Of a stretch of 64,000 nt of DNA, positions 40,828 to 43,922 are shown piece after piece. Each line of letters starts with the position of its first letter. The stretch's first letter is position 1. A program made the translations under genes and the position numbers. The DNA comes from an uncultured archaeon (GTDB lineage: Archaea > Micrarchaeota > Micrarchaeia > Anstonellales > Anstonellaceae). The stretch covers positions 11,909 to 75,908 of the forward strand of contig CABMCD010000004.1 in NCBI GenBank assembly GCA_902384555.1. The letters are read 5' to 3'. The notes below the pieces were generated by a model, which saw only the letters and a list, made by a program, of their open reading frames with translations, ran no database searches and was not told the origin of the DNA.

Positions 40828-42407
40828 GGTTTTGCCCCCACATTATAGATGTCCAAGTCGAGCTTTTTATCCTTCCCCAACGTGTGCGCGATTTCAGCGA
40901 GCAGCATTTTCTTGACCCGCAAGTAGTCCTCTTTTTTCATTTCCACGTTTCCAATCGCATATCGCTTCGCCTTCACGTTGAAGCAGAACATGCAGTCTTG
41001 GCAGTTCTCGATGTTGTGGGAGAAGAGGCAGTCCGAGCAGTCGCGGCTGGAATCCAGCTCAAAACAGCGGGTGAGCTTGAGCGAGTAATAGCAGTTCACG
41101 CAGCAGGAGGAATCGAAGATGGTGTCGCAGCCGAAGCAGGACTCGGAGCGCACGCACCAGAACGAATAGGCGCAAAGCTTGGAATACACCGGGGCGGCCA
41201 TGCGGTAGCAGTCGGAGGAATGGACGCTGACCACGCAATAGACGATGTTGCTGTTCTGTCCAATCCAGAAGTCCATGTCGAAATAGGCCAGCTTGGAAAT
41301 CAGTTCGTGCGCGTTGGAAAGGCAGATGCGCTCGACCCGGCCCGGGTCCGCCTGAACGGACTGGCCGATGGCATCGGCCTCGCGCATGCCCACCACGCGG
41401 TCTTTGGGAATGGGAATGAGGGACATGGTCTTGGGGCAGACGCCCAGGGGCTTGGCGCTGATGGCCGAGCGGCGCTCCTCCATGGGCTTTACATGGCGCA
41501 GCAGCCAGGGCCCGTAATCGTCAATATCCGAGAGAGGCTTTTCGAAAAGGGTCTTGGAGGCTTGTGAGAAGGCCCCCTCGATTTGGCGCCGGTCGCTGGA
41601 CGGGGAGGAGTTCTCGTCTTCGGGGGCGCCGCGGATGGCGGGCTTGTCGGATGCGCACCGGCCGGCGATGTCCATCAGAGTGGGCAGGGACTTTTTCTCC
41701 CTAAGCTCACGGACCATCTCGCCCAGCAGCCGCCGCTTGACGGCCGCATACTGCGCCGGTTCCAGCTGGACGTTGCCCACGCAGTGGCGCCGGTTCTTGA
41801 GATGGAAGCAGAAGATGCAGTCCTGGCAGTTGTCCAGACCGTAGCTGTAATAGCAGTCCGAGCAATGGGTGCAGTTCCAGGCTTCCAGGCTGCGCTTGAC
41901 GCGCACCAGCTGGCTGCAGCTGACGCAAAAGGCCGATTCACCCGGCCCGTAGGAGCCGAACACGCACTCGTTCTCGCGGCCGAAGCTTATTTTGAGGCAG
42001 TATTTCGACGCGCTGTGCTGCATGGTTTCGTACACATAGTAGCAGTCCGACACGTTGGAGCTTCGGCTGACCTCCCGTGAATTGCCCAGCACGATGTTGC
42101 CGGCATAGCAGACGCGCGGACGCAGCGATTCGGCCAGCTCGGCCAGCGAGCGGGCGCGGATTTCACCCAAGGGCGGGGCTTTGGCGGAAAAATCCACCTC
42201 GTCCAGGCTGATGAACCGCCCGCCCGCGTATTCCCGCGACTCGTAGATGACGTCCTGGCCGGACACGGACGATTTTTTCGTGAAAACCGGGCCCGGATGG
42301 ACGCCCAGCCAAGGCAGGAAGGCTTCGAGCCCGCCCACTTCCTCGCCCAGCACGATGCGGCAGGTTTCCTTCCATTTCTGCTCGAGGGTGTCCATCGGCT
42401 CGCTCAT
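40824..42407 (-). CDS. Cys-rich two-module paralog g (527 aa)
   Basis: Start at MSEPMDTLEQKWKETCRIVLG. ATGA overlaps on both sides. Confidence 0.85.
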   Translation of the reverse strand: MSEPMDTLEQKWKETCRIVLGEEVGGLEAFLPWLGVHPGPVFTKKSSVSGQDVIYESREYAGGRFISLDEVDFSAKAPPLGEIRARSLAELAESLRPRVCYAGNIVLGNSREVSRSSNVSDCYYVYETMQHSASKYCLKISFGRENECVFGSYGPGESAFCVSCSQLVRVKRSLEAWNCTHCSDCYYSYGLDNCQDCIFCFHLKNRRHCVGNVQLEPAQYAAVKRRLLGEMVRELREKKSLPTLMDIAGRCASDKPAIRGAPEDENSSPSSDRRQIEGAFSQASKTLFEKPLSDIDDYGPWLLRHVKPMEERRSAISAKPLGVCPKTMSLIPIPKDRVVGMREADAIGQSVQADPGRVERICLSNAHELISKLAYFDMDFWIGQNSNIVYCVVSVHSSDCYRMAAPVYSKLCAYSFWCVRSESCFGCDTIFDSSCCVNCYYSLKLTRCFELDSSRDCSDCLFSHNIENCQDCMFCFNVKAKRYAIGNVEMKKEDYLRVKKMLLAEIAHTLGKDKKLDLDIYNVGAKP

Positions 42408-43165
42408 TTGGGGCACCCCACGTTGAAGACGTTCAAATCCAGCTTCTGGTCTTTTTGCAGCTTGGCCGAGATTTCGGCCAGCACCAGCTTTTTGACGCGC
42501 AAATATTCCTCCTTGGGATAGGAATGGTTGAAGATGGCGTAGCGAAGCGATTTGGCGTTGGTGCAGAAGAGGCATTCGGAGCAGGCGTCCACGTTGTAGC
42601 AGAAATAGCAGTCGGAAGAGTTGGAGGAGTGCGACACCTCAAAGCAGCGCGTCAAATTCACGGAATTGTAGCATTTGAGGCAGAATTTGGAGTGGAAGAC
42701 GACATTGACGCCGAAGAGGTATTCGGAATTGCGGGGCCAGAAGGAGTAGCCGCTGTATTTGCTGTGCACGAAGGAGCTTCCTTTGGAGCAGAAGCTGGAG
42801 AAGCCGTAGATGCCGCACTCGTCCACCGCCTCGTTTTGGCCGATGACCCATTCCGGCGTGTGGAAGGCGAGCGACCGCGTGAGTTTCTTGGCGTTGGAGA
42901 GGTTGATGGACAGGGCGTCCGCCTCGCTTAAGTGCCGGGCCCCCAGCGGGGCGGCCTCATCCTCTTTGAGGGCCGTGGAGAGAATGTGATAATAGAAGCT
43001 CAAGGGGGGCGAGTAGACCGTGCGCCCGCTGATGGGGGATTTGGACAAAATGTCGGGGCGGGTGTTCTGCCGCAGCCACGCCTCGTAGGGCCCGATGGGG
43101 CCCAAAGAGCGGCCCAAGAGCGTGCGGGTGAGGGTGTCGAACGCCTCCTGTACCTTAGGGTGCAT
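42404..43165 (-). CDS. Cys-rich single-module paralog h (253 aa, C-module type)
   Basis: Carries the C-module signatures AFDTLTRTLLGRSLGP ... CSECLFCTNAKSLRYAIFNHSYPKEEYLRVKK. Confidence 0.8.
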   Translation of the reverse strand: MHPKVQEAFDTLTRTLLGRSLGPIGPYEAWLRQNTRPDILSKSPISGRTVYSPPLSFYYHILSTALKEDEAAPLGARHLSEADALSINLSNAKKLTRSLAFHTPEWVIGQNEAVDECGIYGFSSFCSKGSSFVHSKYSGYSFWPRNSEYLFGVNVVFHSKFCLKCYNSVNLTRCFEVSHSSNSSDCYFCYNVDACSECLFCTNAKSLRYAIFNHSYPKEEYLRVKKLVLAEISAKLQKDQKLDLNVFNVGCPK

Positions 43166-43922
43166 CCGCTCCCCCCAAAATGTCCAGTATGGACAAGGTG
43201 TTTTTCTTGGATTTCAATTCCGAGCGCACCTGCTCCAAGAGGCTTTTTTTCACCGCCAAGTATTTGGACGGCTCCAGCGCCAAATTGCCGATGAGGTGCC
43301 GCCGGTTGCGCTGGTTGAAGGTGAAGAGGCAGTCCGAGCAGCCCCACAGGTTGGAGGTGTAGTGGCAGTCCGAGCTCTCGAAGGTGATGTTGGTCTCGAA
43401 GCAGCGCTGCTGCCGATAGGTCTGGAAGCAGCGGATGAGGTATTTGGCCTCCCCCGACCAGTTGACGCCGAAGATGTACTCGTCGAGGCGCGCGAGGGAG
43501 GAATAGGCCACGAACTTGCCGCTCCACACCTGCTGGGACTTGTACACCACTTGCGAGTCGATGATATTGTCGGATTCGGCCACATCAAAGGAATTTCCGG
43601 TGACCTGGTCGGCCGCGTAAAAGAAGTGGGGGGAGATTTCGGACAGGATGGACTCGATGTCCTTGATTTGGTTGAGGTTGAGCTTCACGTCCGAGATTTT
43701 TTTGTTGTAGGCGTCCTGCTCGGCCAGGGAGATGAATTTGGCGGCCGGGCAGAAATAGGGGACCGAGACGGGGAGGCTCTGCCCGCCCAGAGCCGACTTT
43801 TTGGAAAAGATGGGCTCCACGTATTGGGTAAGATAGGCCTCGTAGGTTTTCAGCTCGCCGATTTCGCCGCCCAGCACGATGCGGCAAGTGGCCTTCCATG
43901 CATCATTGATGTCCAAACCCAC
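43155..43922 (-). CDS. Cys-rich single-module paralog i (255 aa, N-module type)
   Basis: Carries the N-module signatures DAWKATCRIVLGGEIG, NQIKDIESIL, CSDCLFTFNQRNRRHLIGNLALEP. Starts 3 nt after the guaAA stop. Confidence 0.8.
   Translation of the reverse strand: MGLDINDAWKATCRIVLGGEIGELKTYEAYLTQYVEPIFSKKSALGGQSLPVSVPYFCPAAKFISLAEQDAYNKKISDVKLNLNQIKDIESILSEISPHFFYAADQVTGNSFDVAESDNIIDSQVVYKSQQVWSGKFVAYSSLARLDEYIFGVNWSGEAKYLIRCFQTYRQQRCFETNITFESSDCHYTSNLWGCSDCLFTFNQRNRRHLIGNLALEPSKYLAVKKSLLEQVRSELKSKKNTLSILDILGGADAP

Follow-up and report, generated by a model that had tools for sequence, protein, structure and literature searches.

An apparently ancient two-gene version of a two-module protein in Micrarchaeota gene arrays

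In archaea, GMP synthase is made of a glutamine amidotransferase (GATase) subunit and an ATP-pyrophosphatase subunit that act as one enzyme, whereas the bacterial enzyme, GuaA, is fused. Here we describe a comparable arrangement in a stretch of 64,000 nucleotides (nt), hereafter the window, from an uncultured archaeon of the Anstonellaceae (Micrarchaeota; GenBank assembly GCA_902384555.1, contig CABMCD010000004.1, positions 11,909 to 75,908), in which two overlapping genes, i and h, encode the N-type and the C-type module of a protein that neighbouring paralogs (a to g) carry as a single chain. As in GMP synthase, of which the same window holds a two-subunit example, the break lies at a domain boundary. 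The halves of GuaA are unrelated, however, and their genes are non-adjacent here, whereas i and h are homologous and overlap.

The pair also resembles the composite and component ("Rosetta stone") pairs, as i and h are collinear, non-overlapping halves of the composite, their genes are adjacent on the same strand and both forms occur across genomes. It differs from them in that composite and components are paralogs in the same genome and array, the halves are homologous, and the state has switched at least 5-10 times in a single lineage-specific family. The Nanoarchaeota, for which "multiple split genes" have been noted (PMC3655853), offer a further parallel. As in Nanoarchaeum equitans, for example, a DPANN host encodes in two pieces a protein that is a single chain elsewhere. 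Nanoarchaeota split genes are mostly dispersed housekeeping genes broken within a domain, whereas i and h are adjacent, overlapping and apparently coupled, with the break exactly at the disordered inter-module linker. The overlap of stop and start and a Shine-Dalgarno (SD)-like motif inside the upstream gene recall translationally coupled overlapping genes, but in i this motif coincides with conserved Gly-Gly codons and coupling is predicted from sequence. On its own, the split is a clean case of well-known gene fission and fusion and not surprising. The features that define it are:

Gene i, standalone N-type module: 43155..43922, minus strand; open reading frame (ORF) with GTG start, 255 amino acids (aa), NCBI VVB56662.1
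Gene h, standalone C-type module: 42404..43165, minus strand; ORF with ATG start, 253 aa, NCBI VVB56661.1
Overlap of i and h, 11 nt: 43155..43165, minus strand; the ATG of h (43165-43163) lies within the final codons of i, whose TAA is at 43157-43155
SD-like GGGGGGAG in the Gly-Gly tail codons of i: 43169..43176, minus strand; 4-11 nt upstream of the h ATG

Two genes collinear with the halves of a fused protein

The positions of both genes and their overlap, first noted in a preliminary description made from the sequence alone, agree with the list of minus-strand ORFs. That description also took i and h to be laid out as the halves of a full-length paralog, and alignment bears this out: the concatenation of i and h is collinear, end to end, with the fused paralogs a-g (524-538 aa), and only the inter-module linker is missing. 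The fused paralogs are:

Paralog g (N=C, 527 aa): 40824..42407, minus strand; 4-nt overlap (ATGA) of its start with the stop of h
Paralog f (524 aa): 39253..40827, minus strand; ATGA overlap with g
Paralog e (532 aa): 37658..39256, minus strand; ATGA overlap with f
Paralog d (530 aa): 36069..37661, minus strand; ATGA overlap with e
Paralog c (528 aa): 34486..36072, minus strand; ATGA overlap with d
Paralog b (538 aa): 32873..34489, minus strand; ATGA overlap with c
Paralog a (537 aa): 30153..31766, minus strand; separated from b by a 1.1-kb gap and modelled with AlphaFold2

The two genes map to distinct, collinear halves of this composite protein. Gene i, which scores best with the N-type profile, shares 33-38% identity with the N modules of a-g and 22-27% with the C modules; for h the values are 26-41% with the C modules and 23-25% with the N modules. 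Because homology also extends between i and h, along their whole length (29% identity, E 1e-30), we regard the two-module protein as an old tandem duplication of one module of about 250 aa. All 118 complete fused homologs have the order N-C, and standalone proteins also exist (52 C-alone and 26 N-alone). Adjacent C modules were limited to a single gene call cut short by a contig end and a single protein of three modules, N-C-C. Two proteins from other metagenomes have unusual architectures, P0085 (730 aa; partial N, C and C) and P0181 (465 aa; partial C and C); they are either three-module or C-C fusions or mis-joined gene calls.

The 255-aa ORF given for i in the preliminary description exists, but its GTG at 43922 is probably not the start used. 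Ortholog proteins begin with MDIN(D/Q/E)AWK. A TTG at 43916, preceded by GGTG at a distance of 7 nt, fits this N-terminus, so that i probably starts there and encodes 253 aa.

We used h-type sequences to gather 72 distinct loci from species-representative genomes and scanned their translations in all six frames. The scan detected 74 adjacent pairs of N-alone and C-alone genes, always in the order N then C, and 102 complete fused units in the same loci. Split pairs are present in 40 of 50 other Micrarchaeota assemblies, and at least 29 of these assemblies contain both forms. Unpaired standalone modules were found at contig edges only, with none partnerless inside a contig; the components of the split form co-occur, stay adjacent and are separate ORFs in independent genomes. 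The nearest relatives, from other metagenomes, are P0002 (73% identical to h) and P0057 (67% to i), and their gene calls have the same 11-nt overlap. The closest loci for which there is DNA are likewise split. An artefact or a pseudogene would be indicated by close orthologs that carry an uninterrupted gene; here the closest orthologs are split with the same overlap. Two arrays (L002 and L003) encode, in order, proteins of 529, 249, 253, 526, 249 and 252 aa.

Nearly all of the 55 homologs of h are standalone proteins of about 253 aa from Micrarchaeota, and the orthologs of i are standalone proteins of 249-253 aa; in many Micrarchaeota the homologs of both keep their full length down to about 35% identity. 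Both i and h are 48-59% identical to split orthologs elsewhere as against at most 41% to the fused paralogs of their own genome, which argues that the split predates the divergence of these lineages. On these comparisons a recent fission specific to this genome is excluded, and i and h are to be regarded as a genuine, anciently split two-gene version of a Micrarchaeota-specific two-module protein. The preliminary description had proposed a split version of the protein and suggested comparison with orthologous loci, and the 74 pairs in 40 of the 50 assemblies and the shared overlap in P0002 and P0057 uphold that reading. It had also raised the case of a single continuous ORF across 43155-43165. 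This was answered indirectly, through relatives: the split in P0002 and P0057 speaks for two genes, although the deletion of one G would join the two frames.

Both halves are probably functional, as first proposed from their intact motifs. Gene i retains the consensus at 39 of 43 conserved columns and h at 39 of 48, in line with the full-length conservation of their homologs, and split units are on average as conserved as fused units. The non-conservative changes in h (FCFN to FCTN and RYAIGN to RYAIFN) are common to P0002, P0004, P0005, P0007, P0008 and P0012; since its orthologs carry the same changes, they appear to be clade signatures and not decay. Pseudogene decay of h was considered and rejected, its odd residues being those of its orthologs.

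The junction and the pairing of the modules

The junction of i and h reads ATT TTG GGG GGA GCG GAT GCA CCC TAA in the frame of i, with the ATG of h inside GAT GCA. Gene h is in the +1 frame of i, and no stop codon interrupts this frame over the 16 codons that precede the h ATG. We compared 71 split junctions. The C gene nearly always starts with ATG. It most often overlaps the N gene by 8 nt (25 pairs) or follows it after a 1-nt spacer (15 pairs); these arrangements and overlaps of 14, 11, 4 or 1 nt make up most of the 71 junctions, and gaps reach up to 116 nt. The N genes end in a conserved ...I(I/L)GG tail whose codons (GGTGG, GGGGG) form an SD-like core. Such a core lies upstream of the C-gene start in 46 of the 71 split pairs compared with 11% of control positions (p ~3e-26), and its position peaks at -12 to -9 relative to that start. 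At the level of sequence, i and h have both a start/stop overlap and a ribosome-binding-like motif in the 3' end of the upstream gene, the latter with the caveat that it falls in Gly-Gly codons. The pattern has the signature of translational coupling, from which we infer coupling in vivo. The i-to-h junction looks like an ordinary inter-gene junction of an operon-like array, since ATGA overlaps of 4 nt with the same G-rich tails occur at each junction from h through b.

Long spacers or terminal extensions of 19-35 aa mark the junction of some split pairs (L079, at 1736; L039, at 7595 and 16695; L033, L061, L065 and L040). These pairs are candidates for recent fissions or transitional states.

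We consider it likely that i and h are a long-conserved, translationally coupled two-gene version of the protein that forms an N/C heterodimer. Translation of the two genes would be coupled through the h ATG within the last codons of i and the SD-like GGGGGGAG upstream of it, and coupling would yield the N and C modules in about equal amounts. The two proteins would then associate non-covalently into the same pseudo-symmetric unit of N and C that a fused paralog makes from a single chain. The modules strictly co-occur, their junctions look coupled and both modules of paralog a are modelled together with confidence (pTM 0.90); from this we infer a 1:1 heterodimer of i and h that is equivalent to the fused form, with the modules acting in trans.

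Several observations weigh against this interpretation. The SD-like motif cannot be separated from the conserved Gly-Gly tail, and its enrichment may be a by-product of protein conservation. Indel errors are typical of homopolymers such as the run of six G at the junction. An AlphaFold2 prediction for the concatenation of i and h, made from the single sequence without an alignment, reached a mean predicted local distance difference test (pLDDT) of 31 and a predicted template modelling score (pTM) of 0.20. Gene h is somewhat more divergent than the median C module (39 of 48 columns, rank 152 of 173). Finally, internal branching in the clan of units to which i and h belong (clan A, below) has less than 40% bootstrap support, so that the history of fission and fusion is unreliable in detail.

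That an extra G in the run of six (43171-43176, within GGGGGGAG) broke a single N=C gene, by a sequencing or assembly error or by a very recent frameshift, seems very improbable. Homopolymers are prone to sequencing errors, and with one G deleted the two frames do join, reading ...ILGERMHPKVQEAF..., with the h frame open upstream of its ATG. The single indel does not restore a homolog-like ORF, however, because the linker of the joined protein would be about 5 aa, against 18-47 aa in all 102 natural fused units. The 11-nt overlap recurs in P0002 and P0057, which come from independent metagenomes, and 74 split pairs occur in 40 assemblies. Moreover, the ATG of h lies 3 residues ahead of the first conserved helix, as in its orthologs, and neither gene exceeds 41% identity to any fused paralog of its own genome. 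Programmed +1 ribosomal frameshifting, by which i and h would yield a fused polypeptide and the split would be only apparent, is likewise hard to credit. The position of h in the +1 frame, shared by the C gene at about 57 of the 71 split junctions, and the U-rich/G-rich run at the junction speak for such a mechanism. The junctions nevertheless differ in geometry, with overlaps of 8, 14, 11, 4 and 1 nt, a 1-nt spacer or gaps to 116 nt and with the C gene in either the +1 or the +2 frame, and the 71 share no slippery site at a fixed position. An independent ATG, with an SD-like motif at -12 to -9, is present in almost all C genes, and the linker of a frameshifted product would be far shorter than any natural one.

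It is also conceivable, but in our view unlikely, that i and h are functional without pairing with each other, and instead form homo-oligomers or take modules of the fused paralogs as partners. The homology of N and C modules (29% identity) makes homotypic packing conceivable, and eight co-encoded units could mix. This is difficult to reconcile with 74 pairs of constant order and coupled junctions in which no standalone module inside a contig lacks its partner, and with fused forms that are always N-C and never N-N, C-N or two-module C-C.

Fission or retained ancestral state

The preliminary description left two histories side by side, a gene fission and a state retained from before fusion. 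In a neighbour-joining tree of 319 single modules, the bipartition of N and C modules was recovered in 100 of 100 bootstraps, and as all 118 fused homologs are N-C, the divergence of N and C predates everything sampled. We then concatenated the N and C modules of 173 units in a neighbour-joining tree rooted by fitting the N-to-C cross distances. The units fall into two clans by a bipartition found in 197 of 200 bootstraps. Clan A comprises 77 units (59 split and 18 fused), including i+h and paralog a, the only fused member of this clan in the window, and clan B comprises 96 units (84 fused and 12 split), including paralogs b-g. L079 is a split pair surrounded by fused units of clan B.

We lean towards fission over a retained ancestral state, and an old fission of a fused gene is, by a modest preference, the favoured direction. 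The reverse, in which a single-module gene was duplicated in tandem before any fusion, the split was retained from that time and fused genes arose later, several times, is possible but the less probable history. A whole-gene tandem duplication would naturally yield two adjacent genes. The point estimate of the tree within clan A, (6 split,(13 fused,(28 split,(5 fused,25 split)))), is most parsimoniously explained by a split ancestor and two fusions, and the fitted root lies between the mostly split clan A and the mostly fused clan B, where parsimony for the root state is tied at 6 changes. Over 100 bootstraps, however, the root was split in only 6, compared with 46 fused and 48 ambiguous, with 5-10 changes of state. 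The basal branches of the module tree are fused, and only 15-21% of bootstraps place a split clade as sister to all the rest. The linkers point in the same direction, as the fusion of overlapping genes would give almost no linker, yet all fused units have at least 18 aa, and the long tails on the split pairs L033, L061, L065 and L040 resemble linker remnants. The ease with which a fused gene could become split where the linker is disordered also favours fission. The topology of the module tree in which standalone modules are nested in fused ones was not relied on, the standalone clades having 5% bootstrap support. As regards a vestigial start codon, Met at the start of the fused C module is enriched at column -7 (20 of 116); standalone C proteins start at the position equivalent to column -8, where fused proteins have a conserved Asp.

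The family, its fold and its neighbourhood

A profile search of 1.84 billion representative sequences gave 328 family members at E<1e-30, and all named sources are Micrarchaeota or carry a related DPANN label. Among the 150 matches listed, most are two-module proteins of 515-540 aa, accompanied by standalone modules and shorter or partial proteins. Neither h nor i matched Pfam, NCBIfam, the defence-system models of PADLOC or the phage families of PHROG. Among the fused paralogs, Pfam searches with a, d and f, NCBIfam searches with a and d and a PADLOC search with a gave no match. The only match of the family outside its own members is phrog_15341, a phage family without assigned function, which matches the N-module solenoid of paralog a (residues 111-224, window ~31095-31436) at E 1.3e-6. 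Family profiles found no sequence relative in PDB, and no description of the family was found in literature searches.

The AlphaFold2 model of paralog a, built from 116 sequences (pLDDT 88.6, pTM 0.90), is disordered only in the linker at residues 264-270, in keeping with a fixed packing of the two modules. Each module begins with a helical or mixed part, continues as a series of short strands and ends in a long helix. The strand region follows a 12-residue period (CxFCxNxxxxxx) over about 8 coils, at residues 114-212 in h, at residues 114-212 in i and in both modules of d, and is modelled as a Cys/Asn-ladder beta-solenoid. N modules often carry Ser, Thr or Val at the Cys positions, which makes an essential metal or disulfide role of the Cys ladder doubtful. 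No signal peptide or membrane segment was apparent in the protein sequences.

Foldseek searches of PDB and BFVD gave no significant match; the weak PDB hits (E >=0.8, TM <=0.23) were all left-handed beta-helix proteins. With such proteins (gamma-carbonic anhydrase, LpxD, PglD) the model of paralog a shares runs of short strands and the long C-terminal helix, but the family has no Hexapep match in Pfam and a period of 12, not 6 or 18. The beetle antifreeze protein is a 12-residue Cys-rich solenoid and agrees with the family in its period, although N modules of the family often replace the Cys.

The features next to the array in the window are:

Regulator with two helix-turn-helix (HTH) domains (AsnC-type/HTH_24, Pfam): 31882..32883, plus strand, divergent; between paralogs b and a
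HerA/FtsK-like P-loop ATPase (DUF87 and TrwB_AAD_bind, Pfam): 28226..30001, minus strand; just downstream of paralog a
GMP synthase glutamine amidotransferase subunit (Pfam GATase): 43926..44564, minus strand; its stop lies 3 nt upstream of the GTG of i

Homologs of the ATPase, which has weak matches to the PADLOC HerA and mad8 models, occur within 10 kb of arrays in 30 of the 72 loci, in other Micrarchaeota. Homologs of the two-HTH regulator adjoin arrays in 13 loci, and 24 other loci have on the same strand a regulator of about 240 aa with a C-terminal HTH that we judged by eye to be HTH_10-like. A regulator gene interrupts arrays just before the last fused unit, and in L010, L016, L020 and L069 it lies in gaps of about 800 nt. 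The recurrence of arrays with the ATPase and HTH regulators suggests a functional module. As a guess of low confidence, the family could act together with the HerA/FtsK-like ATPase as a beta-solenoid scaffold or binding unit without enzymatic activity. A bolder and quite improbable proposal is that N and C modules build an undescribed, Micrarchaeota-specific beta-solenoid assembly in which paralogous units co-assemble, possibly handled by the ATPase, and in which switching between fused and split forms tunes the pairing. If true, this would be a new cellular apparatus of DPANN archaea, with split units free to pair in trans, and would go beyond one more case of fission and fusion.

The interest of the system lies in the family, in which fused and split forms stand side by side in the same operons, in at least 50 genomes and with several independent changes of state. 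With a break that always falls at the disordered linker and junctions that are apparently coupled, it offers a compact natural data set on the gain and loss of linkers, on coupling in place of covalent linkage and on a possible promiscuity of split-module pairing. As a large, undescribed family of predicted Cys-ladder beta-solenoids in DPANN archaea, organised in large paralog arrays with HerA/FtsK-like ATPase genes as conserved neighbours, it is a more promising lead than the split.

The minus strand at 30153-43922 holds eight units of this one family (i/h, g, f, e, d, c, b and a) and has the appearance of a single, tightly coupled operon. On the plus strand opposite the array run very long antisense "shadow" ORFs (500+ aa), for example at 39313-40848, 43095-44690 and 43879-45540; they are not genes, and their homologs cluster across loci only through the conserved sense genes. 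The GATase gene and gene i may be co-transcribed, given the 3 nt between the GATase stop and the GTG of i. GMP synthase is encoded on the minus strand as two subunits, the GATase (43926-44564) and an ATP-pyrophosphatase with a GMP_synt_C domain (46979-48085), and MgtC, MarC and CNNM/CBS genes lie between them.

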